A stretch of 64,000 nucleotides of DNA. Source: Candidatus Omnitrophota bacterium. GTDB taxonomy: Bacteria; Omnitrophota; Gorgyraeia; Gygaellales; Profunditerraquicolaceae. Each line of letters begins with the position of its first letter. Within the stretch, counting starts at the first letter, position 1. Positions 5,645 to 56,021 of the stretch are shown here, one piece after another. A program made the position numbers and the translations under genes. The stretch covers positions 86,846 to 150,845 of the forward strand of contig JAQTQJ010000002.1 in assembly GCA_028712255.1 (NCBI GenBank), written 5' to 3'. The notes under the pieces are model-generated. The model was given only the letters and a program-made list of their open reading frames with translations. It was not told where the DNA came from and did not search any database.

Positions 5645-5738
5645 GAAATTAAGTGGTCCGGAGATAGCAAGTTGTTTCCGGAGGTGTTTCTTAGATGGTC
5701 GGGCCGCCATCTTGCATTTAATGCAGGGTGGTTTTTTT
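5645..5738 (+). ncRNA. candidate structured small RNA / terminator module, copy 1 (P1 hairpin UCCGGA...UCCGGA, P2 AGAUGG-UCGGGCCG-CCAUCU, terminal hairpin + U-run)
   Basis: own promoter-like TTGTAT-16-TATAAT at 5601-5628; paralogous copy at 12283-12362 with compensatory changes; ends in GGUGG+U7. Confidence 0.35.
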
Positions 5739-5755: not shown

Positions 5756-6318
5756 ATGGGCATTTCTTCAGCATTCTTTATTAATAATTTATTTGAAATT
5801 TTAGTTCCGGTTGGAATAATTATCTTAACTTTAATTTGCGGGTTTATTATAGGAAAAATTGTCTTTGTGCGTCTTAGTTACTGGTCAAAGCAGACTAAAA
5901 CTCAAATTGATGATATCGTTATAGACTCAATAATGTTGTATTGATTCCTAATGAGAAATTGACAAAAGCAATTGTTACCAATTATTACCTGCCGGAAAAG
6001 GAGATGATGGTTTTAGTAAATTTAGGGGTTCACTATAAAAGCGACCTAAAAGAAGTTGAGCAAATAACTTGTGAAGTCGCCAAGGAAGTCATGCAAGAAA
6101 TCCCCGGAGGCGTGCCTAAATTTGATCCGTTTATTAGTTATGGTGGTTTTGGGGATTCCAATATCAGCCTGACCGTTATTTTGAGGGCAAAGGAATTTGT
6201 AGGCCAATATTTAATTAAGCATGAATTTATAAAAAGGCTCCATGATCGTTATGCCAAAGAGGGCATTGTAATTTCTTATCCGATAAGAGCGATAAATTAT
6301 CAGCAGGAGGAGGAATAA
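5756..6318 (+). pseudogene. MscS-family channel remnant (frameshift at ~5941 plus loss of pore-helix/TM3 segment)
   Basis: 62-aa N-terminal TM fragment then, in another frame, the MscS beta-domain (IPNEKLTKAIVTNYY... cf. E. coli IPNGKIIAGNIINFS); together only ~187 aa versus ~350 aa for the intact paralog at 2079. Confidence 0.55.
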
Positions 6319-12269: not shown

Positions 12270-12282
12270 TTTATAATACGAG

Positions 12283-12362
12283 GGTTCGGAAGCTATTTAT
12301 TTCCGGAGGATTCAGATGGTCGGGCCGCCATCTTGCATGTGAATGTAGGATGGCGTTTTTTA
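12283..12362 (+). ncRNA. candidate structured small RNA / terminator module, copy 2
   Basis: TATAAT at 12272-12277 just after treT stop; P1 UUCGGAA/UUCCGGA (G.U-compensated versus copy 1), identical P2 AGAUGGUCGGGCCGCCAUCU, alternative GCCAUC/GAUGGC terminator + U-run. Confidence 0.35.
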
Positions 12363-14106: not shown

Positions 14107-14547
14107 ATGATTATTTTATTTTTAGCTGTAGCAATAAATACATATGCCGCAGGCACCAGCTCTTCATCATGGGAACCTAAGGCGCAGGAAAATAAACCGG
14201 CGGTTTCCCTATATGACCAAGGGGTTCAAGCAAGTAAGGATAATAATTTTCAAAAAGCTTTGGATTTATTTAATCAAGCTTTACAGGCCAATCCCAGTAA
14301 CTCGGATATCTTTAATATGTTGGCTCATGTTCAACTAAAACTGGGAATGATCGATGAATCATTGGAAAACTATAAAAAAGCTTTAGAGTTAAGGCCAAAT
14401 TTTCCGGAGGCCAGGGAATATCTGGGGGAGGCATATATCCAGGCAGCGTTACGGGAAATAAAAACCCTTCAAAGTTATGGCGGGGAGGCGGGAGAAAATT
14501 TCGAAAACCTAACAAAGGCGTTTAAGGATGCCGCAGCTGGTTTATAA
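14107..14547 (+). CDS. secreted TPR-repeat protein
   Basis: signal peptide MIILFLAVAINTYAAG then 3 TPR units; start chosen at 14107 rather than track's 14056, which overlaps the desulforedoxin gene. Confidence 0.6.
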   Translation: MIILFLAVAINTYAAGTSSSSWEPKAQENKPAVSLYDQGVQASKDNNFQKALDLFNQALQANPSNSDIFNMLAHVQLKLGMIDESLENYKKALELRPNFPEAREYLGEAYIQAALREIKTLQSYGGEAGENFENLTKAFKDAAAGL

Positions 14548-14551
14548 AATA

Positions 14552-14598
14552 AGGACAGCGGATATTATTGGATAATATTCGCTGTCCTTATTTTATAT
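14552..14598 (+). terminator. rho-independent terminator after the TPR gene
   Basis: AGGACAGCG-N18-CGCTGTCCT hairpin followed by TTATTTTATATT. Confidence 0.55.
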
Positions 14599-15724: not shown

Positions 15725-15816
15725 ATCTCCAAGGGGGGGATAGAATTAAATAGATTTATATTGAGGAGGGTTAATGTATATTAGAACCGTTCCTATTTAT
15801 AATATATAATACTGGT

Positions 15817-18836: not shown

Positions 18837-19463
18837 ATGAAGAAGTTACTGCATATTATTGCTACACCACGCAGGGAGGAATCAAGGACTCTTAAGGTTA
18901 GTAGTTCTTTTCTTAAAGCTTTTACCGATAGCCATCCCGATTGGGAGGTAGAAGAATTTGATCTGGCAAAGGTGAAGTTGCCTGATTTGGCAGTAAAGCA
19001 GGTAAACGGGAAATACCTTCTTTTAAGCGGCAAGGATTTGACCGGCCCATTTAAGGCATCCTGGAAGGATATTTTAAAATATATCCAGCAGTTTCTGTCC
19101 GCTGACGGATACCTGCTTAGCACTCCCATGTGGAATTTTTCAATTCCGTATAAGTTAAAACATTATTTAGACGTAATTGTTCAACCTAAGTATCTTTTTC
19201 AATATACAAATACCGGTGTAGAAGGGTTGGTAAAAAATAAAAAGATGGTTGTTGTTGTTTCCAGAGGAGGAGATTATACATCAGAGCCCTTTACAAGCCG
19301 CGATCATCAGGAACCATATTTACGTTCAATTTTTGGATTTGTAGGGATCAGTGATATAAAATTTATTATCGCTCAACCGATGGATATGGGCAATGAGTTA
19401 CAGGAAAAAAGAATACAGGTTGCTCAAGGACTGGCAAAAGAAACCGCAAAAAATTTTGGATGA
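18837..19463 (+). CDS. azoR: FMN-dependent NADH-azoreductase / quinone reductase
   Basis: flavodoxin-like fold, LSTPMWNFSIPYKLKHYLD motif. Confidence 0.75.
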   Translation: MKKLLHIIATPRREESRTLKVSSSFLKAFTDSHPDWEVEEFDLAKVKLPDLAVKQVNGKYLLLSGKDLTGPFKASWKDILKYIQQFLSADGYLLSTPMWNFSIPYKLKHYLDVIVQPKYLFQYTNTGVEGLVKNKKMVVVVSRGGDYTSEPFTSRDHQEPYLRSIFGFVGISDIKFIIAQPMDMGNELQEKRIQVAQGLAKETAKNFG

Positions 19464-19469
19464 AATAAT

Positions 19470-19521
19470 GGGACCGTTTCTATTTTTCTCGAGCCTAATC
19501 TAAAAAAATAGAAACGGTCCC
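19470..19521. repeat. perfect 18-bp-stem hairpin GGGACCGTTTCTATTTTT-N16-AAAAATAGAAACGGTCCC (copy 1, followed by T-run; likely terminator)
   Basis: identical stems recur at 41660-41705. Confidence 0.6.
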
Positions 19522-19540
19522 ATTATTTCATTATTTTTTG

Positions 19541-19610
19541 TTGACATTGTATGCTATACGCATATAATAATATACAAATAGATATAACTATATGCATATA
19601 GCATACAATG
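19541..19610 (+). promoter_or_regulatory. sigma70-like promoter (TTGACA 19541-46, TATAAT 19563-68) overlapped by a 20-bp inverted-repeat operator
   Basis: arms TTGTATGCTATACGCATATA (19547-66) and TATATGCATATAGCATACAA (19589-19608), 19/20 complementary, right arm overlapping the HTH ORF start codon. Confidence 0.5.
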
Positions 19611-24866: not shown

Positions 24867-24953
24867 TGTCATTGCGACCCTGAGCGAAGCGAAGGGGAAG
24901 CAATCTTAAGGCATAGATTGCTTCGTCGGGCTTGGCCCTCCTCGCAATGACAC
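24867..24953. repeat. nested palindromic intergenic element (family A: GTGTCATTGCGA...GAAGCAATC | GATTGCTTC...TCGCAATGACAC)
   Basis: 12-bp outer and 10-bp inner perfectly complementary arms; right half is the exact reverse complement of the left half of the copy at 31415. Confidence 0.7.
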
Positions 24954-31387: not shown

Positions 31388-31414
31388 TAGGGACAGCGAC
31401 CGTTTATTTTTAAA

Positions 31415-31498
31415 GTGTCATTGCGAGGAGGGCCAAGCCCGACGAAGCAATCCATGCATTAGATTGCTTCGCTCGCTACCGCTCGCTCGCAATGACAC
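31415..31498. repeat. nested palindromic intergenic element (family A)
   Basis: GTGTCATTGCGAGGAGGGCCAAGCCCGACGAAGCAATC ... GATTGCTTCGCTCG...CTCGCAATGACAC. Confidence 0.7.
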
Positions 31499-40313: not shown

Positions 40314-41641
40314 GCTATACCCCGCATACGCAGGAAGATATTAAACAGATGCTCTCGGCAATAGGAGCCAAGAGTATTGATGATCTTTTTCAAGATATCC
40401 CAGCGGCGCTTGCTCCAAAATCTTTTAATATTCCTGCTCCAAAATCGGAATTCGTTGTAACCCAGATTCTGCATAAGCTTTCTTTAAAGAATGCTACTAA
40501 CCTGGTTAATTTTGTCGGCGGCGGTTTCTATGATCATTTTATTCCTGCTTCAGTTGAAGCTATTGTTAGCCGACCGGAGTTTTATACCGCTTATACTCCG
40601 TATCAGCCGGAATGTTCCCAGGGGTGGTTGCAGGCAATCTATGAATATCAGAGTATTATTTGTCAGCTAACCGCTCTTGATGTTTCAAATGCTTCTTTGT
40701 ATGACGGTGGCACCGCTCTTTTTGAGGCGATGATGATAGCAATTAGGCAGACCGGGCGCAAAAAAATAATTTTGGATAGCGGAGTGAATCTAATTTATCG
40801 CACGATGCTTTATACTTATACAAAAAATCTTTCCGTAGAATTTATAGAGATTCCGGTTGCGCACGGCCAGAGCAGCAGAGAGGAATTAGTTAAATATTTA
40901 GATGATAAAACCGCCGCGGTAATTTTACAGAATCCTAATTTTTTCGGCGCTATTGATGACCATACTGATATAGTTGAAAAGGTTCATAAGTTTGGTGCTT
41001 TGGCAATTGCTTCGGTATATCCGGTTTCTTTGGGTATGTTAAAGTCTCCAGGAGAAATGGGGTTTGATATCGCTACAGGAGAAGGACAAAGTTTAGGGAT
41101 TCCGCTTTTTTTTGGCGGCCCTTATTTGGGGTTTATGGCTGTAAAAAGTCAATTAGTGCGTCAGATGCCTGGTAGAATTGTAGGGGCTACGGTTGATAGC
41201 GATGGAAAAAGAGGGTTTGTATTAACTCTTCAGACACGCGAGCAGCATATTCGCCGCCAGAAAGCAACTTCTAACATTTGTTCAAATGAGGCTCTTTGCG
41301 CATTACGGGCAGCAGTGTTTGTTTCTCTCTTGGGCAGGGAAGGCTTAAAGGAATTAGCCGAGCATAACTATTCAAAAGCAGAATTTGCCAAAGAGCAACT
41401 ATCGCGCATTAGCGGTGTGCAGGTGAAACGTTCTTCTCCGACTTTTAATGAATTTACGGTGTTATTGCCAAAAGGCGCCGATGAAGTAGTGCACCGGATG
41501 ATTGATAAAGGTTTTGCCTGTGGTTTTCCGCTGGGCAGGTTCTATAAAGGGATGGATAATTATTTATTGATTGCTGTTACCGAGAAGAGGACTAAAGAAG
41601 AGATTCGTAGGCTTGTCGATAGCCTGGAGGCAGTGCTATGA
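40310..41641 (+). CDS. gcvPA: glycine dehydrogenase (decarboxylating) subunit 1
   Basis: GcvP N-terminal half; operon position. Confidence 0.85.
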   Translation: MSYTPHTQEDIKQMLSAIGAKSIDDLFQDIPAALAPKSFNIPAPKSEFVVTQILHKLSLKNATNLVNFVGGGFYDHFIPASVEAIVSRPEFYTAYTPYQPECSQGWLQAIYEYQSIICQLTALDVSNASLYDGGTALFEAMMIAIRQTGRKKIILDSGVNLIYRTMLYTYTKNLSVEFIEIPVAHGQSSREELVKYLDDKTAAVILQNPNFFGAIDDHTDIVEKVHKFGALAIASVYPVSLGMLKSPGEMGFDIATGEGQSLGIPLFFGGPYLGFMAVKSQLVRQMPGRIVGATVDSDGKRGFVLTLQTREQHIRRQKATSNICSNEALCALRAAVFVSLLGREGLKELAEHNYSKAEFAKEQLSRISGVQVKRSSPTFNEFTVLLPKGADEVVHRMIDKGFACGFPLGRFYKGMDNYLLIAVTEKRTKEEIRRLVDSLEAVL

Positions 41642-41659
41642 TTTTTCTTTTAAAAACAT

Positions 41660-41705
41660 GGGACCGTTTCTATTTTTCTAAATTTAGAAAAATAGAAACG
41701 GTCCC
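41660..41705. repeat. 18-bp-stem hairpin GGGACCGTTTCTATTTTT...AAAAATAGAAACGGTCCC (copy 2, between gcvPA and gcvPB, no T-run)
   Basis: stems identical to 19470-19521. Confidence 0.6.
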
Positions 41706-41732
41706 AAGATTCAACATGAAAGCGGGTGCGGG

Positions 41733-43190
41733 GTGAAATTAATTTTTGAAAAACATAAAGAGGGAAGGCGGGGATTTTTATATGGCAAGTGTGATGTCGA
41801 TAAGCCTAAGCCTTTGGCAGAAAAATACTGCCGTAAAACCCAGGCGCATTTAGCTTCTCTTAGCGAGCTGGACGTTGTGCGTCACTATACGAATATGTCC
41901 CGCTTTAATTTTTCTGTTGATACTCACTTCTATCCGCTTGGTTCATGTACCATGAAATATAACCCAAAATTCTGCGAACGGATTGCGTCATTTGAAGGAT
42001 TTTCTGGCGTGCATCCTTTATTGCCTCAGCTTTCAGGTGGCGGTATGCTTGCGCAGGGTTCGTTGGAAGTTTTGTATGAAACAGAAAAGCTGCTTTGTGA
42101 AATTACCGGAATGAAAGCTTTCTCGATGCAGCCTTTAGCCGGAGCCCATGGTGAATTAACCGGAGTAATGCTTATTGCTGCATATCATAAAGATAAAGGA
42201 AACCGGCGTAAATATATAATTGTGCCGGATTCATCGCATGGCACAAATCCTTCCAGTGCCGCTATTGCCGGTTATGAGATTAAAGTTATCCCAACAGGCT
42301 TAGATGGCTATATGGACTTGGATGAATATAAAAAACAGTTGAATAACGAAGTGGCAGCTGTGATGTTGACTTGTCCGGATACCTTGGGGATTTTCAATCC
42401 GCGCATTAAAGAAATTGCTGATTTGGCGCATAAGTGCGCAGCTCTGATGTATTATGACGGAGCCAATCTCAATGCTATGCTTGGTAAGGCTCGTCCTGGG
42501 GATATTGGTTTTGATGTTATGCATATAAATTTGCATAAGACATTTGCTACGCCTCATGGAGGAGGCGGCCCGGGGGCAGGCCCAGTGGGGGTGAGTGAAA
42601 AGTTAGTTGAGTTTCTGCCGATTTCCCGGATTAAGAAGCGCGATGACGGCACCTATGCTTTGGATTATCATCAACAGAAATCAATCGGTTATATCGCTCC
42701 TTTTTACGGAAATTTCGGAGTGATTCTTAAAGCATATGCTTATATATTGGTTTTGGGTAAGGAAGGCTTGATTAAGGCAACAGAGATGGCGGTGTTAAAC
42801 GCCAATTATTGCCAGGCAATCCTTAAGGATTATTATGAGCTGCCTTTTGATAAAAGGTGTATGCATGAATGTGTTTTTTCTGCCGTACGCCAGGCAAAAA
42901 ATGGAGTTGCTGCTTTAGATATTGCCAAATATTTAATTGATAAAGGATATCATCCTCCGACAATATATTTTCCTTTAATCGTTAAAGAGGCATTGATGAT
43001 TGAGCCGACAGAAACAGAGTCAAAGGAAACCATTGATGCTTTTATTGAGGTAATGATTGAGATTGCTCATCTGGCGCAAGAGAATCCAACTGCTGTAAAT
43101 TGTGCACCTGTTAATATGCCGATAAAACGGCTCGATGAAGTAAGGGCAGCTCGACAGCCTGATCTTTGCTGGAAGGAGGAGTCATCCTGA
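41733..43190 (+). CDS. gcvPB: glycine dehydrogenase (decarboxylating) subunit 2 (PLP-dependent)
   Basis: PLP-lysine region NLHKTFATPHGGGGPG. Confidence 0.85.
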   Translation: MKLIFEKHKEGRRGFLYGKCDVDKPKPLAEKYCRKTQAHLASLSELDVVRHYTNMSRFNFSVDTHFYPLGSCTMKYNPKFCERIASFEGFSGVHPLLPQLSGGGMLAQGSLEVLYETEKLLCEITGMKAFSMQPLAGAHGELTGVMLIAAYHKDKGNRRKYIIVPDSSHGTNPSSAAIAGYEIKVIPTGLDGYMDLDEYKKQLNNEVAAVMLTCPDTLGIFNPRIKEIADLAHKCAALMYYDGANLNAMLGKARPGDIGFDVMHINLHKTFATPHGGGGPGAGPVGVSEKLVEFLPISRIKKRDDGTYALDYHQQKSIGYIAPFYGNFGVILKAYAYILVLGKEGLIKATEMAVLNANYCQAILKDYYELPFDKRCMHECVFSAVRQAKNGVAALDIAKYLIDKGYHPPTIYFPLIVKEALMIEPTETESKETIDAFIEVMIEIAHLAQENPTAVNCAPVNMPIKRLDEVRAARQPDLCWKEESS

Positions 43191-43262
43191 GCTATGAGCA
43201 AAGCGAATGGCCAAGGATCTCGATTTAGATTCTTCAGTCGCTTGCGCTCCTTCAGAATGACG
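43181..43262. repeat. nested palindromic element (family B: GTCATCCTGAG...GAAGGATCT | AGATTCTTC...TTCAGAATGAC), overlapping the last 10 nt of gcvPB
   Basis: arms complementary with G.U-type substitutions. Confidence 0.65.
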
Positions 43263-43273
43263 AATTTTATTAA

Positions 43274-44032
43274 ATGAAAACATTTAAGTTAATTCGATCC
43301 CCGGCACAAAGCGCCGCTTATAACATGGCGCTTGATGAAAAAATATTTGAGCATTATTTAGAGGATGGTGTTGGAGTGTTTAGAGTGTATCGTTGGCAGA
43401 TGCCGTCTTTTACGTATGGTTTTTCCCAAAACCCTCAAAATGAAATCAATTTAGCCCGATGTGCCTCTGATGGAGTGCAAATTGCTAAAAGAATGACTGG
43501 AGGAGGAATTCTTTTTCATGATGATGAAATGACTTATAGTTTTGTCTGTAGTAAGGAGGATGTAGGAGAGCCTGACCGTGTATTTGTTTCTTACCGCGGT
43601 ATTTGTAAATTTCTCATCCGGTTTTATGAATCGCTTAAGCTTCTCCCTAGCTTTGCCCTTGAGTCAGAAGGTTTTAAAGATAAATGTGCCGCACATGAGC
43701 TTTGCAGCGCCTCGCATGAAAAATATGATATTGTTATTGGCGCAAAAAAAATCGGCGGGAATGCTCAGAAAAGAAAAAGGCAAGTTATTTTTCAGCATGG
43801 TTCAATTCCTTTAAGTGTCAATTGGGATTTTGTGCGTAAGTATCTTAATTCTTTGCCTAATGATATCTCTGGACATGTAACAACACTTAGTGAGCAGCTA
43901 AAGGTAATTCCGGGAAGAGACATCCTTGAGCAAAAACTAATAGATACATTTGCTTACACATTTAACATAAATTTTTTGAATTACAGTCATTGCGAGCCCG
44001 CCATTGATTTGGTGGCGGGCGAAGCAATCTAA
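43274..44032 (+). CDS. lipoate-protein ligase / octanoyltransferase family protein (BPL/LPL catalytic domain)
   Basis: BPL_LplA_LipB fold motifs (KRMTGGGILFHDDE, GAKKIGGNAQKR); C-terminal 16 aa encoded by a palindromic element. Confidence 0.65.
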   Translation: MKTFKLIRSPAQSAAYNMALDEKIFEHYLEDGVGVFRVYRWQMPSFTYGFSQNPQNEINLARCASDGVQIAKRMTGGGILFHDDEMTYSFVCSKEDVGEPDRVFVSYRGICKFLIRFYESLKLLPSFALESEGFKDKCAAHELCSASHEKYDIVIGAKKIGGNAQKRKRQVIFQHGSIPLSVNWDFVRKYLNSLPNDISGHVTTLSEQLKVIPGRDILEQKLIDTFAYTFNINFLNYSHCEPAIDLVAGEAI

Positions 44033-44402
44033 AGTTATGGCCGTAAAGTATGGCTATATTTATATTTTAACTAATAGCACAGATATAGTTATTTATACTG
44101 GCGTTACGAGTAATTTACAGAAACGCGTATATGAACATAAGAAAAATTTAGTTAAAGGGTTTACTAGTAAATATAGCGTACATAAGCTTGTTTATTATGA
44201 AGTATTTGATAGTATGGAAGATGCTATAATTAGAGAAAAACAAATTAAGGGTGGTTCTCGAAAGAAGAAGGTTGATTTGATAAAAAATTTTAATCCGGAG
44301 TTTAAAGATTTGTATGGTGAATTATGAGATTGCGCAGCCTGTTGCGAGCCCGTTTTTGAGATTGCTTCGTCGTCCCGCTTTTGGCGGGACTCCTCGCAAT
44401 GA
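43985..44402 (+). mobile_element. candidate autonomous member of the palindromic-element family: complete terminal arms with a GIY-YIG nuclease gene replacing the short loop
   Basis: left: GTCATTGCGAG-hairpin CCCGCCATTGATTTGGTGGCGGG-CGAAGCAATC; right: GATTGCTTCG-hairpin GTCCCGCTTTTGGCGGGAC-TCCTCGCAATGAC; same arm order as the 74-90 bp miniature copies. Confidence 0.4.
44037..44327 (+). CDS. small GIY-YIG nuclease-family protein (~96 aa)
   Basis: YGYIYILTN...IYTGVTSNLQKRVYEHK GIY-YIG motif, conserved R and E; start taken at ATG 44037 (track's 44004 is a TTG inside the repeat arm). Confidence 0.7.
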   Translation: MAVKYGYIYILTNSTDIVIYTGVTSNLQKRVYEHKKNLVKGFTSKYSVHKLVYYEVFDSMEDAIIREKQIKGGSRKKKVDLIKNFNPEFKDLYGEL

Positions 44403-44443
44403 CGGGCGAAGCAATCGGTTCGTCCCCTCGCAATGACTGGTTT

Positions 44444-45280: not shown

Positions 45281-45304
45281 AAAATAATGATAAATAAGCT
45301 ATAA

Positions 45305-45348
45305 GTTGTAAGCTATAAGTTTTAAGCTTAAAACTTATAGCTTACAAC
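45305..45348. repeat. perfect 44-bp palindrome (19-bp stems around central AAGCTT); probable bidirectional terminator between lipA and thyX
   Basis: GTTGTAAGCTATAAGTTTT-AAGCTT-AAAACTTATAGCTTACAAC; preceded by direct repeat AGCTATAAGTT. Confidence 0.5.
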
Positions 45349-45386
45349 TTTGTTAGTATTTCGAGTTAATATAGGGGGGATTAATT

Positions 45387-46131: not shown

Positions 46132-46211
46132 CGTCATCCTAAGGAGCGAAGCGACGAAGGATCTCAAGAGATTCTTCGTCAGCCGCCTATGGCGGCTTCC
46201 TCAGAATGACG
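46132..46211. repeat. nested palindromic element (family B)
   Basis: GTCATCCTAAGG...GAAGGATCT-CAAG-AGATTCTTC...GCCGCCTATGGCGGC...TCAGAATGAC. Confidence 0.65.
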
Positions 46212-46984: not shown

Positions 46985-47058
46985 TGTGTCATTGCGAGGA
47001 GCCGTAGGCGGCGAAGCAATCTTTTAGATTGCTTCGCCCTTTGGGCTCGCAATGACAC
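46985..47058. repeat. nested palindromic element (family A)
   Basis: GTGTCATTGCGAGGAGCCGTAGGCGGCGAAGCAATC-TTTTA-GATTGCTTCGCCCTTTGGGCTCGCAATGACAC. Confidence 0.7.
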
Positions 47059-51606: not shown

Positions 51607-52001
51607 ACAAGATAAAGGTATTAGTTGTCGACGATGAAGTTGATTATTTGGCCTTAATACAGGAGCATATTGAGTCTTGGGGGTATGATGTACTTTTGGC
51701 AGAAAGCGGTAAGGAGGCTTTAGCCATAATTAAAGAAAAGAAGCCTGATATTGTGGTTTTGGATTATCTTATGCCGAATATGGACGGTACGTCAGTTTTA
51801 AAGGAAATAAGAAAATCTGATAAAGATTTATTTGTAATTATGCTTACTGCTTATGCGGATATTAACAACATAAAAGCCGCGCAGGAGTTAGGGGTAAGCG
51901 CTTTTATCCCTAAGCTGAACATTTATTCTCCGGATATACAGGCAACCTTGATGTCGGTATTGGATTTACTGCGTAATAAAATTAACGAGGGCAAGGTTTA
52001 A
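51603..52001 (+). CDS. single-domain response regulator (REC only)
   Basis: VLVVDDE...VVLDYLMPNMDG...KP. Confidence 0.75.
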   Translation: MNKIKVLVVDDEVDYLALIQEHIESWGYDVLLAESGKEALAIIKEKKPDIVVLDYLMPNMDGTSVLKEIRKSDKDLFVIMLTAYADINNIKAAQELGVSAFIPKLNIYSPDIQATLMSVLDLLRNKINEGKV

Positions 52002-52005
52002 GGTT

Positions 52006-52377
52006 ATGGATAAGAAAAAGATACTTGTTGTTGATGATGAGCCGGAACTGGTAGAGATGCTTACCATAAGGCTAGAGGCAAACGATTATCAAGTGATTAA
52101 ATCTTTTGACGGACAGGATGCCCTGGATAAGGCGCGCAAAGAAAAACCGGATTTAATTATTCTTGATCTTATGCTTCCTAAGCTTGATGGGTATAGTGTC
52201 TGCCGTCAGTTAAAATTTGATGAAAAATATAAACAGATTCCGATTATGCTTTTTACCGCCCGCACCCAGGAAACCGATATGGAATTAGGTAAAGAAGTGG
52301 GGGCGGATGCCTATATTGTTAAACCATTTGAGGCAAGTATTTTTTTAGCCAAGGTAGCTGAGCTTTTGAATAAATAG
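52006..52377 (+). CDS. single-domain response regulator (REC only)
   Basis: ILVVDDEPE...IILDLMLPKLDG...KP. Confidence 0.75.
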   Translation: MDKKKILVVDDEPELVEMLTIRLEANDYQVIKSFDGQDALDKARKEKPDLIILDLMLPKLDGYSVCRQLKFDEKYKQIPIMLFTARTQETDMELGKEVGADAYIVKPFEASIFLAKVAELLNK

Positions 52378-52390
52378 TTTTAATTTGTAC

Positions 52391-52479
52391 GTCATTCTGA
52401 GCCCGCCATCAATTTAGTGGCGGGCGAAGAATCTAAAAACAAGATCCTTCCCTTTCGCTCCGCTCAAGGTCAGGATGAC
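52391..52479. repeat. nested palindromic element (mixed family; internal hairpin CCCGCCATCAATTTAGTGGCGGG near-identical to the one in the GIY-YIG-bearing copy)
   Basis: GTCATTCTGAG-hairpin-CGAAGAATCT...AGATCCTTC...TCAGGATGAC. Confidence 0.6.
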
Positions 52480-52521
52480 TAAGAATAGTATTTTATAATG
52501 GTTTCATAGGGAGGTGACCAG

Positions 52522-52902
52522 ATGCAGAAAAAAATTCTGATTGTTGATGATGAACATAGCTTAGTGGATTTTGTACGACTGAGACTTGAAGCAAATAATT
52601 ATCAGGTGGTTTCTGCTGCTGATGGAGAGGAGGCGCTTAGGGTTTTTGCTAAAGAAAAACCGGATTTGGTGTTGTTGGATATTCTAATGCCAAAGATAGA
52701 TGGTTTTAAAGTGTGCCAAGTACTCAAAAAAGATCCATCTAGCTCTAGTATCCCCATAATTATGCTTACCGCTAAAGACCGCACGGATGACATAAAAAAA
52801 GCTCATGAATCAGGGGCGGATGCTTATATTATTAAGCCTTTTGATGCCTCCACTCTACTTCTTGATATTAAAGATCAGTTGACTAAGGTAAAGAAAGGTT
52901 AG
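52522..52902 (+). CDS. single-domain response regulator (REC only)
   Basis: ILIVDDEHS...VLLDILMPKIDG...KP. Confidence 0.75.
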   Translation: MQKKILIVDDEHSLVDFVRLRLEANNYQVVSAADGEEALRVFAKEKPDLVLLDILMPKIDGFKVCQVLKKDPSSSSIPIIMLTAKDRTDDIKKAHESGADAYIIKPFDASTLLLDIKDQLTKVKKG

Positions 52903-52911
52903 TTATTAACA

Positions 52912-54237
52912 ATGTATAATAAATTTCTACTCATAGGTTCTGGGCCTTCGATCTACGAAATCAAAGAGGTATTATCCAACCTTGCTTTGGAGGTGGAGAT
53001 AGCCAACGTTTATAATGAAATAACTCCAAGGTTAAGAAAGGCACAGATAGTTATTTTTGATAAAGATTCCTACCTATCGAATCCCCGCTTGCTAAAGAAT
53101 ATTCTTAATACCCTTGTCCGATCCAAAAAAGATTTTGTGGTATTGTCGAGTGAAAAATCAATTTCAGCTGTCCTTGCGGCTAAAGCAGCGGGCGCCTCAG
53201 ATTATATCCTTAAGCCTTATAATGTGCGTGAAGTAAATCTCAGGCTAAGCGCGATCTTGAACAATAAAAAAATAATTTCTTGTGTCGGCGGCGGGACAGG
53301 GTTATTTAACCTTCTTTTGGGTATTAAGAGTTTGCCGGCTATTCTGCCTATTTCTATTGTTAGTACAACTGATGATGGAGGCTCATCCGGTAGATTGCGG
53401 GATTCTTTTGGAATCTTGCCTCCTGGAGATATACGCCGGAGCTTAGTTGCCCTTTCCAACGCGCCCGAGATAATGAATAAAATTATCCAGTATAGGTTTA
53501 GCAAGGGGGAGGGTTTTAGGGGGCATAGTTTTGGCAACCTTCTCTTAACTGTGCTCAGTGACATTGAAGGCTCGATGTCCAATGCGACAAGAGGCGTAGG
53601 AGATATACTCAACATTAACGGCATAGTCTATCCTATTGCTTCTACAGAATCTATTTTGTATGCTAAGTTTGAAGATGGGAGTATGGTTAAGGGCGAGAAT
53701 AATATTGATCTGTGTAAAGGCCGCTCGCCTGAATTACGTATAAAGAAATGCTGGCATAAACCGCTTCCAAAATGCGACATCAATGCCTATTCCGCTATTA
53801 TTAATTCCGATATTGTTACTATAGGCCCTGGCGATCTTTATACCAGCGTTATAACTAACCTTTTAATCAAAGATATTCGCCAGGCAATAGTTAAGAGCCG
53901 GGCGAAAAAGATTTATATTTGTAATTTAATGACTAAACCGGGAGAGACCTTTGGTTATGATGCTTTTGACCATATTAGCCAAATCCTGCGCTATTTAGAG
54001 AAAGATTGCCTTGATTATATTATTCTTGCTGACAATAGTAAACTACACACAGAGGCACTTCTTAAGTACGCCAAGAAGGGGCAGTTTCCGGTTCAGATAG
54101 GAAATTTGGCTAAGATCAGAAAGCTTACCAGGGCTAGTATTATAATTACCGATTTATCTGATGAGCAGGAGTTGATTCGCCATGATGCCCAGAAGATAAG
54201 AAACCAAATTGCCAAGATTATTAACGGGAGAGCTTAA
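52912..54237 (+). CDS. fusion: degenerate receiver-like domain + YvcK/CofD-family (UPF0052) domain
   Basis: N-terminal ~115 aa REC-like (KP present, acidic DD pocket replaced by GSG); C-terminal SCVGGGTGLFNLLLG...TDDGGSSGRLR is the YvcK/CofD signature. Confidence 0.6.
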   Translation: MYNKFLLIGSGPSIYEIKEVLSNLALEVEIANVYNEITPRLRKAQIVIFDKDSYLSNPRLLKNILNTLVRSKKDFVVLSSEKSISAVLAAKAAGASDYILKPYNVREVNLRLSAILNNKKIISCVGGGTGLFNLLLGIKSLPAILPISIVSTTDDGGSSGRLRDSFGILPPGDIRRSLVALSNAPEIMNKIIQYRFSKGEGFRGHSFGNLLLTVLSDIEGSMSNATRGVGDILNINGIVYPIASTESILYAKFEDGSMVKGENNIDLCKGRSPELRIKKCWHKPLPKCDINAYSAIINSDIVTIGPGDLYTSVITNLLIKDIRQAIVKSRAKKIYICNLMTKPGETFGYDAFDHISQILRYLEKDCLDYIILADNSKLHTEALLKYAKKGQFPVQIGNLAKIRKLTRASIIITDLSDEQELIRHDAQKIRNQIAKIINGRA

Positions 54238-54239
54238 TT

Positions 54240-55622
54240 ATGAATGATTCGCATATTTTGGTTATTGATGACGATAAAGAAGCAACAGCTTTGATTTCCG
54301 TAAGACTAAAACGCCATGGTTTCCAAGTATCTGTCGTCAATATTCCGGAGGAGGCGATTGAATTCCTAAAGAAAGATGTGCCTGATCTTGTAATTCTTGA
54401 TTTAGTAATGCCAGGGATAGACGGTTATGAAATTTTACGTAAAATCCGGCTTGATGAAACTACTAAAGCAGTTCCTGTTATAGTGCTTACCGCAAAATCG
54501 GACCAATCGGACAGGGTGAATGCGTTTAATATGGGCGCGCAGGATTATATTACCAAGCCTTACGAGCCAGAGGAGTTTTTGGCAAGGATTAAAGCCGCGC
54601 TAAGAAGGGTAAATCATGAGGTGGTTACGAAGAAAATTAAGAATGTATTGATTACCGGAGGCGCAGGATTTATTGGCTCGGCTTTGGCAAGGCGGCTTCT
54701 GGCCGAAGAATATAAAATAACCGTTATCGATGATTTTTCTACCGGAAGCAGAGAAAATATTCAGGATATGCTTAATAATAAGAATTTTAATCTGATAGTC
54801 GGCTCAATAACCGACGAGACGATATTGAGCAAGGCGATAGAAGAGAGTGATTTAATTTATCATTTGGCCGCCACTGTTGGGGTTAAAAATGTGATTGAGA
54901 AGCCGCTGGATACCGTTATCTATGATACTATCGGTACCAGTATTATCTTAAAATATGCTTCATCAAAAGGCGTAAAGGTGGTTTTAACATCGACTTCAGA
55001 AGTATATGGCAAATCTAATAAGTATCCTTTTAAAGAAGATGATGATGTTGTGATTGGGCCTCCTGACGTGAACAGATGGAGTTATGCCTGTTCGAAATTA
55101 CTGGATGAATTTTTTGCTATTGGATATTATCGTGAAAGAGGGCTGCCGGTTGTAATTGTCAGGTTTTTTAATATAGTCGGCCCCAGGCAGGTGGGCCGTT
55201 ACGGGATGGTTATCCCGAGGTTTTTTAAGAGCGCCTTACAAAATCAGCCTATCTATGTATATGGAAATGGGAAACAGTCTCGGTGTTTTACTTATATTGA
55301 TGACGCTATAAATATAATACTGAAACTTGCACAGAATCAACAGGCTGTTGGCCAGGTTATTAATCTTGGCTCCAATAACCTGATTTCAATTAAGGATCTG
55401 GCTTGTGAAATAAAGCGCATTACTAAAAGTTCTTCTAAAATAGTCTTTGAGCCGTATCAGAAATATTACGGCAACAGGTTTGAGGATATAAAAAAGAGGA
55501 TTCCGGACTTAACTAAATTAAAGAAGATTTCCGGAGTTACCCCTGAGACTACGATACCGCAGATACTTAAGAAGATGAAAGATTATTTTGAAGAGAACCC
55601 GAAAGAGCTGGATAGAATATAG
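54240..55622 (+). CDS. fusion: response-regulator receiver + NAD-dependent sugar epimerase/dehydratase (extended SDR, UDP-glucuronate decarboxylase-like)
   Basis: REC with ILVIDDD, VILDLVMPGIDG, KP; SDR with GGAGFIGS Rossmann motif and catalytic YACSK. Confidence 0.75.
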   Translation: MNDSHILVIDDDKEATALISVRLKRHGFQVSVVNIPEEAIEFLKKDVPDLVILDLVMPGIDGYEILRKIRLDETTKAVPVIVLTAKSDQSDRVNAFNMGAQDYITKPYEPEEFLARIKAALRRVNHEVVTKKIKNVLITGGAGFIGSALARRLLAEEYKITVIDDFSTGSRENIQDMLNNKNFNLIVGSITDETILSKAIEESDLIYHLAATVGVKNVIEKPLDTVIYDTIGTSIILKYASSKGVKVVLTSTSEVYGKSNKYPFKEDDDVVIGPPDVNRWSYACSKLLDEFFAIGYYRERGLPVVIVRFFNIVGPRQVGRYGMVIPRFFKSALQNQPIYVYGNGKQSRCFTYIDDAINIILKLAQNQQAVGQVINLGSNNLISIKDLACEIKRITKSSSKIVFEPYQKYYGNRFEDIKKRIPDLTKLKKISGVTPETTIPQILKKMKDYFEENPKELDRI

Positions 55623-55637
55623 AACGAAAGGAGCACA

Positions 55638-56021
55638 ATGGAAAAGAAAAAAATATTGCTGGTGGATGATGAGGTAGATTTTTTGCAGTTATTAAAACTT
55701 AGATTAGAGGCCAATGACTATAACGTTATTACTGCGATGAATGGTAAGGAGGCTTTGGAAAAATTTAAACGGGAAAAGCCGGACATGCTTATTCTTGACG
55801 TAATGATGCCGGAAATAAATGGCCTTGAAGTTTTAAGGGAAATAAGAAAAGATGACCAGAAAATACCTATATTTATAATTACGGCATTCAGTAATGAAGA
55901 AAGATTTAAAGAAGCTAATCAATTTAATGCCTCTGGGTTCATTATGAAGACCAGCGATCTACAAACTGAGATAGATAAGATAAGCAATACTTTGGGGATA
56001 GCGCCAAAGCATAAAAAATGA
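55638..56021 (+). CDS. single-domain response regulator (REC only)
   Basis: ILLVDDEVD...LILDVMMPEINGLE. Confidence 0.75.
   Translation: MEKKKILLVDDEVDFLQLLKLRLEANDYNVITAMNGKEALEKFKREKPDMLILDVMMPEINGLEVLREIRKDDQKIPIFIITAFSNEERFKEANQFNASGFIMKTSDLQTEIDKISNTLGIAPKHKK

Follow-up and report, generated by a model that had tools for sequence, protein, structure and literature searches.

We report that a small open reading frame (ORF) at positions 44037-44327 of a 64-kb stretch of an Omnitrophota metagenome-assembled genome (MAG; contig JAQTQJ010000002.1, the whole stretch of 64,000 nucleotides being hereafter the window) is very probably an ssnA-type gene of the Ssn nuclease family, and that the repeat arms flanking it between the housekeeping genes lplA and lipA are its cognate SRM hairpins, part of the superfamily of CGTC-tagged REPs. 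The association of a GIY-YIG nuclease with hairpin repeats is already published (PMC11893778), and the window represents a divergent, composite class of SRM. A sequence-only reading of the window had proposed a candidate mobile element resembling the REP/RAYT pairs, with a GIY-YIG instead of an HUH enzyme; the arrangement stands and is of a known kind: this apparent new "GIY-YIG REPtron" is the Ssn/SRM system described in 2025, and the main value of the present analysis is its correct filing.

Assignment of the nuclease to the Ssn family

Ssn enzymes are single-domain GIY-YIG site-specific endonucleases of single-stranded DNA (ssDNA) (Chenal et al. 2025, Nat Commun 16:2388; PMC11893778). SsnA of Neisseria meningitidis, a 94-aa single-domain GIY-YIG protein (cd10448, GIY-YIG_unchar_3), recognises the NTS hairpin (CGTCATTCCCGCGMAVGCGGGAATCYRG) by binding it in single-stranded form only, its cut falling a few nucleotides upstream. 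It is inactive on double-stranded DNA (dsDNA), on RNA and on the reverse strand, does not bind RNA, and was found by mutagenesis to need Y6, Y17 and E64 for cleavage. Cleavage depends on the three nucleotides 5' of the NTS palindrome and binding on the C that follows it directly on the 3' side, and the loop can be removed or extended with cleavage kept (PMC11893778), a tolerance that fits the variable apical hairpins and the composite class of the window.

The predicted 96-aa GIY-YIG ORF is indeed present between the arms: its product matches the Pfam GIY-YIG domain (PF01541, E 3.5e-17, residues 5-78) and contains no second domain. It is 44% identical to the 94-aa SsnA ortholog of N. gonorrhoeae (pairwise E 5e-29), and a tblastn comparison with the N. 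gonorrhoeae locus gave E 1e-17, within the homology threshold of the Ssn paper (E < 1e-10). Residues Y9, Y20 and E67 of the window protein align with SsnA Y6, Y17 and E64, all three mutagenised residues being conserved; the gonococcal ORF likewise has 94 aa, Y6, Y17 and E64, and is embedded in NTS repeats.

The window protein is 100% identical to an NCBI protein from a Candidatus Omnitrophica MAG. Its wider family is very large, with at least 8000 matches in a word-indexed protein search and, in an exhaustive phmmer search, 11,982 clusters of 50% identity at E <= 1e-3 and 3,728 at E <= 1e-10. The family is nearly absent from phage records, with no relatives in the viral contigs searched and four weak matches in 50,697 phage records. 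The sole NCBIfam match was a sub-threshold group I intron endonuclease. The kinship with UPF0213/YhbQ-like proteins, a comparison that had been suggested, proved distant only, the PDB yielding no closer relative than the UPF0213 protein BH0048 (1ZG2, E 1e-4), which shares the stand-alone GIY-YIG domain and a similar size.

The repeated hairpin unit

The sequence-only reading had described a left half and a right half of one palindrome on either side of the gene, with positions and parts that are right to within 1-2 nt. We found instead that the true repeat is one hairpin unit, the "palindrome" being two such units, independent of each other, joined as a dimer. Each "half" folds on itself because the core of the outer arm (ATTGC) pairs with the core of the inner arm (GCAAT), and both mixed-type dimers and single units identical across dimers identify each half as a complete unit, an outcome which that reading had itself named as one that would count against it.

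The order of elements in the unit is a GTC tag, a 5-bp basal stem, a GA/GA(A) internal loop, a variable apical hairpin and a 3' C. In every unit, the 5 nt after GTC are the reverse complement of the 5 nt before the final C, and three such basal-stem pairs occur in the window: ATTGC/GCAAT, ATTCT/AGAAT and ATCCT/AGGAT (TGC, TCT and CCT types). The composite unit spans 30-44 nt overall, 9-23 nt of which form the apical hairpin. In 15 of 15 window units the stem is immediately preceded by GTC and immediately followed by C, and the same basal stem was predicted in all 14 units that were folded as ssDNA, including the left (-13.6 kcal/mol, z -4.0) and right (-10.8 kcal/mol, z -4.1) units beside the nuclease gene. 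Within the window, the outer arm (at most one mismatch) occurs in 9 copies against 0.55 expected and the inner arm in 14 against 3.8, counts that no shuffle reached.

A covariation test across 80 homologous loci, in which candidates were chosen by their 5' tag only, revealed an exact complementary 5-mer followed by C downstream in 105 of 138 cases; partner matching fell to 4.6% once the 5-mers were swapped between candidates. Further covarying stems were observed among related loci (ATCCC/GGGAT, ATTCC/GGAAT and GCCCT/AGGGC). Units also assort independently of one another: the dimers at 24868 and 31417 share one identical unit, on the right in the first and on the left in the second, next to different partners, and the apical hairpin of the left unit beside the gene recurs in the dimer at 52391 on another basal stem.

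Seven gene-less inverted dimers are scattered through the window (Table 1), making eight inverted pairs with the one that frames the gene, and all dimers sit in short gaps between co-directional genes. The arm order claimed for the palindromes at 24868-24951, 31417-31496 and 46988-47056 is present; that listing, sound for the TGC/TGC palindromes, had left out four dimers of sister type (at 43181, 46133, 52391 and 60236), built from the arms GTCATCCTGAG..CGAAGGATC and GTCATTCTGAG..CGAAGAATC. All four are mixed, with one CCT-type and one TCT-type unit each. The dimer at 43181 supplies the stop codon of gcvPB (TGA, 43188-43190), and the pair that frames ssn likewise supplies that of lplA (44030-44032).

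These traits place the units among the CGTC-tagged REPs (Di Nocera et al. 2013, PMC3733652), which include Neisseria dRS3 and Rickettsia RPE-4/RPE-6 and are defined by a tag (CGTC or TGTC), a stem whose first pairs are A-T and T-A, a brief 3' tail that starts with C and a mainly inverted, intergenic dimeric arrangement; the window units show (C/T)GTC followed by AT.. and form eight inverted pairs in 64 kb. Unlike the classical families, which have a continuous 8-9-bp stem and a 4-5-nt loop (PMC3733652), they are interrupted by an internal loop, and they fall outside families CGTC-1 to CGTC-4. CGTC-tagged REPs were reported to "apparently lack a dedicated transposase" (PMC3733652), and Ssn now fills the role of their dedicated enzyme.

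Gene-unit association across bacterial phyla

The sample of 80 loci covered one genome per species from at least 15 phyla, with identities of 38-79%. A unit on the plus strand upstream and one on the minus strand downstream were found by the relaxed scanner at 51 of these loci, and one of the two at 16 more, against a background of 0.15 units/kb elsewhere in the same loci; the strict scanner recovered both flanks at 39, and even the relaxed one missed some variants visible by eye. Nuclease and repeats therefore belong together, and GIY-YIG homologs at other loci and in other phyla have such units beside them as well, as had been anticipated. The most distant homologs (<45% identity, L085-L087) carry no flanking units. 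Protein clade covaries with unit type, the nearest protein neighbour having the same unit class in 51 of 65 cases against 26 expected (maximum 41 in 1000 permutations).

Close relatives of the window gene reproduce the cassette in detail. In a relative (L001-L003), an 82%-identical homolog is found at the equivalent position, gcvP-lplA-[gene]-lipA-thyX, and an 81%-identical one lies at a different locus, fmt-[gene]-galT (L004-L007); both cassettes have the same arms, the same CGAAGCAATC-TAAAGTT-ATG junction (identified in L001, L004 and L009) and a stop codon abutting the right unit, with apical hairpins that differ. By tblastn against annotated plasmid and replicon records, homologs were detected in Sinorhizobium meliloti, Azospirillum lipoferum 4B, N. 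gonorrhoeae and Sphingobium, each flanked by classical CGTC hairpin dimers, and these four hosts are hosts named in PMC3733652. In Alpha- and Betaproteobacteria the gene stands between two whole dimers, one on each side; its placement in the loop of one palindrome, as first read, holds for the Omnitrophota-type cassettes and not for Proteobacteria.

The N. gonorrhoeae record among these (L088, NZ_CP119140.1) has a length of 2.17 Mb and is labelled "plasmid" in PLSDB, being evidently a chromosome; its SsnA ortholog lies within an NTS/dRS3 repeat cluster and is unannotated in the PLSDB gene table.

Ssn authors found SRM near 71% of Ssn homologs and on both sides in 42%, with a main text that mentions neither Omnitrophota nor Patescibacteria (PMC11893778). 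Their published pattern misses the composite SRM, so these figures may understate the link between gene and SRM. This composite class, which conserves only the 5-bp stem, the tag and the 3' C, is widespread in Omnitrophota, the Candidate Phyla Radiation (CPR), Chloroflexota, Nitrospirota and other phyla. Because hairpin type covaries with protein clade, pairs of enzyme and site are available for the ssDNA-cutting uses to which the family is being put.

Several observations weigh against assigning the window to the Ssn/SRM system. The published SRM pattern, HGTCWYN(0-2)YYVSBRHN(0-5)WNVSBRGN(0-2)RNCYNB, has no match in the window, and it is therefore by extrapolation that the enzyme is taken to recognise a 5-bp stem plus internal loop; the same expression, a search tool and not a definition of SRM, retrieves 9 NTS in the Neisseria locus and 4 in that of Azospirillum. 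The Neisseria ORF was called SsnA by its length, residue positions and NTS flanks, not by accession number. Finally, three basal-stem types coexist in the window with a single ssn gene, which is flanked by TGC-type units. As sequence matters as well as structure (PMC11893778), the CCT/TCT dimers probably need a second enzyme, and probably depend on an ssn paralog elsewhere in the genome; several homologs in other genomes (L018, L034, L061 and L065) are flanked by just such CCT/TCT mixed pairs.

It is scarcely credible that the repeats are instead RNA-level elements, such as terminators, ribozymes or regulatory hairpins, adjacent to a nuclease gene by coincidence. They are stable hairpins in short gaps between co-directional genes, as such elements would be, and yet they lack the T-run signature of terminators, match no Rfam family at gathering thresholds or even at E <= 10, and occur in both orientations in every dimer. 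Their orientation-specific flanking of ssn homologs at 51-67 of 80 loci is beyond chance, and SsnA does not bind RNA (PMC11893778). Among specific candidates, a ribozyme or K-turn with a hammerhead-like GUC...CUGA..GAA core was rejected, there being no three-way junction, no CUGANGA core and no Rfam match. A terminator or promoter role was likewise dismissed, scan counts around the cassette lying within those of shuffles and the units having no T-run.

Gain and loss at conserved gene junctions

Searching for LplA homologs and their contigs, we assembled an allelic series at the lplA-lipA junction. The junction is empty in L095 and L096, where lplA overlaps lipA; it holds a 24-nt footprint, GTCATTATGCACACTCTCAATGAC (GTCATT..CAATGAC), in L100, and a plain TGC/TGC dimer with the same outer boundaries as the cassette in L094. 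L099 has a complex dimer without ssn; in it, the extra fragment, the right unit and the 32-nt spacer of the window are all present in inverted orientation. The full cassette is found in L001 and in the window, and L097 carries an unrelated 165-nt palindromic insert. The outer boundaries of the cassette (GTCAT...ATGAC) are constant.

In GcvPB, L001 (full cassette) and L097 (no ssn) are 96% identical. The nearest alleles to that of the window are the empty and dimer ones (86-87%), with L001 further off (81%). It follows that loss or gain of the cassette has happened repeatedly at this junction. The dimers at 43181 and 46988 are also present in the window and not in L001, which at the position equivalent to 46988-47056 has a solo GTCATTGCGAG (~5765-5777) inside the 3' end of cbiQ and no dimer; this solo arm could be a remnant or a pre-existing half-site. 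A second case was identified in Azospirillum lipoferum 4B, where a dimer-ssn-dimer cassette of ~530 bp splits sufB from sufC and is missing from four relatives whose flanks reach 95-96% identity.

Presence/absence polymorphism at a conserved locus, a check that the sequence-only reading had called for, is thus positive, and the natural allelic series at one housekeeping junction provides comparative evidence for a mobility that the original Ssn authors only hypothesised. Mobility is supported and its mechanism unproven: the proposed autonomous mobile element gains from the polymorphism and from copies at unrelated loci, and is held back by the question of how it would move. Alignments of the window with L001 and the other relatives, and of Azospirillum with its own, defined neither a target-site duplication nor a clean junction, the flanks being too diverged (71-96% identity). 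Ssn of the window and of L001 are 82% identical and the neighbouring genes 71-81%; the divergence of Ssn is thus similar to that of its neighbours, and is explained equally well by transposition and by ancient vertical descent followed by repeated loss.

The 165-nt insert of L097 (2930-3095) is bounded by a long inverted repeat, CAGTAGACAGTGTATG...CATACACTGTCTACG, unrelated to SRM, and the lplA-lipA junction seems to be a hotspot for different small elements.

Proposed mechanism and competing explanations

By analogy with SsnA, the units would fold into hairpins whenever the DNA is single-stranded, during replication, repair or uptake. What the enzyme would then read is the tag (GTC), the basal stem of 5 bp and the 3' C; it would nick a few nucleotides 5' of the tag and, judging by homology, would be inactive on dsDNA, on RNA and on the complementary strand. 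The apical hairpin would not be read and would for that reason be free to vary. Both the cassette and the gene-less dimers have one unit on each strand, tags facing outward, so that the predicted nicks bracket the cassette or dimer. Cleavage by the window enzyme itself, and a spread of units driven by it, are what we infer from this analogy.

Tentatively, the unit-ssn-unit cassette might be an autonomous transposon, with Ssn as its transposase and the gene-less dimers as non-autonomous miniatures (analogs of miniature inverted-repeat transposable elements, MITEs, or REPINs) that Ssn would mobilise in trans, either by excising and reinserting them or through ssDNA copying, a possibility that we regard as rather unlikely. 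The same cassette and junctions recur at the unrelated loci lplA-lipA, fmt-galT, sufB-sufC and hflX-mazG, protein identity is high across phyla, and the predicted nicks fall just outside both ends. The bare dimer of L094 and the 24-nt footprint of L100 share the exact outer boundaries of the cassette, and both the contrast between L001 and L097 and the window dimers missing from syntenic L001 point in the same direction. However, dimer halves assort independently of each other, the alignments define neither a target-site duplication nor a clean boundary between empty and filled sites, and the similar divergence of Ssn and its neighbours fits vertical inheritance with loss. Moreover, GIY-YIG nucleases hydrolyse DNA, and to our knowledge no covalent intermediates suited to strand transfer have been described for them. 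The enzymatic activity documented for the Ssn family is ssDNA nicking only; its authors likened NTS-ssnA-NTS to an insertion sequence (IS) and compared it with RAYT/REP, and no transposition was reported (PMC11893778). If the cassette did prove to be an autonomous element, it would be a prokaryotic transposable element run by a GIY-YIG ssDNA nickase with host replication or repair, not by a DDE, HUH, serine or tyrosine enzyme. Ssn would then be the "missing transposase" of CGTC-tagged REPs, and the lplA-lipA series would record a pathway of excision or decay.

Invasion of pre-existing dimers by a free-standing homing endonuclease gene, using the units as homology arms, appears improbable. It would account for the exact placement of the Omnitrophota-type ORF between inner arms, where the leader has a fixed length of 7 nt and the stop codon abuts the right unit, for the bare L094 dimer with the same boundaries, and for flanking apical hairpins that differ between orthologous cassettes with a conserved ORF. 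It is at odds with the Alpha- and Betaproteobacterial gene, which lies between two whole dimers and not within a loop, and with the window protein, which has no separate DNA-binding domain of the kind found in classical GIY-YIG homing enzymes. For characterised Ssn enzymes the cut falls 5' of the tag and beyond the unit, in ssDNA only (PMC11893778); they would therefore produce no double-strand break in the loop.

A domesticated host function with no current mobility, in which Ssn and its hairpins process or restrict ssDNA as in Neisseria and the layout is a relic, is a credible explanation, though we would stop short of calling it probable. In vivo, SsnA lowers the integration of NTS-bearing transforming DNA in Neisseria, and this ssDNA restriction is the only demonstrated biological role (PMC11893778). 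Different species have kept the lplA-lipA and fmt-galT insertions, with 76-82% identity between the proteins. For ssn itself neither a promoter nor a terminator was recognised, scan counts around the cassette not exceeding those of shuffles; without its own promoter, the gene appears to share a transcript with housekeeping genes and may be coupled to them in translation. Proteins of prepilin type appear to be encoded in the window too, and pilins could be relevant should Ssn act on DNA that the cell has taken up. Domestication leaves unexplained, however, how hundreds of units and several cassettes came to spread both in single genomes and among phyla, as well as the repeated gain and loss at one site, and Omnitrophota are not known to be competent.

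Comparison with known systems

Of the systems considered, Ssn/SRM is matched by the window in its single-domain GIY-YIG protein of ~95 aa with conserved catalytic residues, in its oriented flanking hairpins with a (C/T)GTC tag, a stem starting from AT and a 3' C, and in the scattering of these hairpins mostly as inverted dimers. The window departs from it by a composite hairpin with a hypervariable apical part that the published pattern misses, by three coexisting stem types with mixed dimers in an Omnitrophota MAG host, and by a gene set between single units, whereas the Neisseria gene lies in an NTS cluster.

With RAYT/REP-REPIN systems the window shares a hairpin with an unpaired 5' tag read as ssDNA, genome-wide inverted doublets, and an enzyme gene flanked by its own repeats. 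These systems rely on an HUH Y1 tyrosine enzyme (TnpA_REP) with a covalent intermediate and on a GTAG tag, whereas the window has a GIY-YIG hydrolase and a GTC tag; neither defining trait of a RAYT/REP "REPtron", the HUH Y1 enzyme or the GTAG tag, is found in it, and the likeness is architectural only. Subterminal hairpins read in ssDNA and cleavage offset from the hairpin recall the "peel and paste" elements of the IS200/IS605 family, which differ by having both hairpins on one strand and a Y1 transposase, the window hairpins being on opposite strands with no strand-transfer enzyme evident. Homing endonucleases such as I-TevI and Seg likewise combine a GIY-YIG domain with a small ORF wedged between conserved genes, but possess a separate DNA-binding domain and cut dsDNA, where Ssn is single-domain and ssDNA-specific.

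Layout of the cassette and dimers of the window

The components of the cassette and the gene-less dimers are listed in Table 1. The lplA-like ORF, which begins at 43274, reads through the left unit and ends at the TAA of the leader. The 32-nt spacer is not in the clean L001 and L004 cassettes, and 30 of its 32 positions are conserved, in inverted form, in the ssn-less allele L099. The truncated unit downstream is shared with L099, and tandem fragments like it occur in L008; we read it as a remnant of a neighbouring dimer. The ssn gene is present as a single copy in the window.

Table 1. Coordinates of the ssn cassette and of the gene-less hairpin dimers in the window
Feature	Position	Strand	Description
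Left SRM hairpin unit	43986-44029	+	GTCATTGCGAG / CCCGCCATTGATTTGGTGGCGGG / CGAAGCAATC; from sequence, fold and unit scanner
Parts of left unit	43986-43988 (GTC tag); 44029 (3' C)	+	Stem ATTGC/GCAAT, GA-rich internal loop, apical CCCGCCA..TGGCGGG
Leader, 7 nt	44030-44036	+	TAAAGTT; separates left unit from ssn ORF
ssn gene	44037-44327	+	96-aa single-domain GIY-YIG nuclease, Ssn family; from Pfam PF01541 and SsnA alignment
Spacer, 32 nt	44328-44359	.	From ssn stop codon to right unit; from alignment with relatives
Right SRM hairpin unit	44360-44403	-	Inverted, tag outward; GATTGCTTCG-TCGTCCCGCTTTTGGCGGGACTC-CTCGCAATGAC, apical hairpin GTCCCGCC..GGCGGGAC
Truncated/chimeric unit	44404-44437	-	Outer arm and mis-oriented inner arm, no basal stem possible; followed by lipA
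Dimer TGC/TGC	24868-24951	.	Gene-less, inverted
Dimer TGC/TGC	31417-31496	.	Gene-less, inverted
Dimer CCT (degenerate)/TCT	43181-43261	.	Between gcvPB and lplA; not in syntenic L001
Dimer CCT/TCT, mixed	46133-46210	.	Between thyX and cbiQ
Dimer TGC/TGC	46988-47056	.	Between cbiQ and ABC ATPase gene
Dimer TCT/CCT, mixed	52391-52479	.	Left-unit apical hairpin 87% identical to that of the ssn left unit
Dimer CCT/TCT, mixed	60236-60311	.	Inverted

Other palindromes and repeats

A second, different GIY-YIG gene was observed between gcvPA and gcvPB in the closest relative of the window (L098, LplA 92% identical; gene at L098 662-964). It encodes 100 aa, is 38% identical to the window Ssn, overlaps its neighbours (ATGA/GTGA) and has no CGTC-type units. 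The corresponding site of the window (41640-41737) holds a 78-nt near-perfect palindrome (41644-41721) followed by ~35 nt matching the 3' end of the L098 gene, and gcvPA and gcvPB overlap directly in five other relatives; this site may represent a second replacement between nuclease and palindrome.

That palindrome belongs to a second family, built on the core AAATAGAAACGGTCCC, which is matched 6 times where 0.7 would be expected, and whose copies lie at 19460-19531 and 41644-41721 and whose degenerate copies lie at 15783-15798 and 31396-31411. With a T-rich run behind it, the 19460 copy resembles a bidirectional terminator. Long palindromes unrelated to SRM units were also located at 45303-45350, 14543-14597 and 19545-19610, one of them, in the lipA-thyX gap, being perfect over 48 nt (24+24 nt, no spacer).

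Two matches to the nhaA-I RNA (Rfam RF03057, typed by Rfam as a cis-regulatory riboswitch) scored above the gathering threshold, at 5654-5712 and 12282-12333 (45.7 and 47.3 bits). The direct-repeat families in 51610-55810 look like response-regulator receiver paralogs, to judge from their sequences, and three paralogous 60-nt repeats that are 60-70% identical (59763-59822, 62306-62365 and 63152-63211) look like prepilin-type N-terminal coding segments of type IV pilin or pseudopilin genes.

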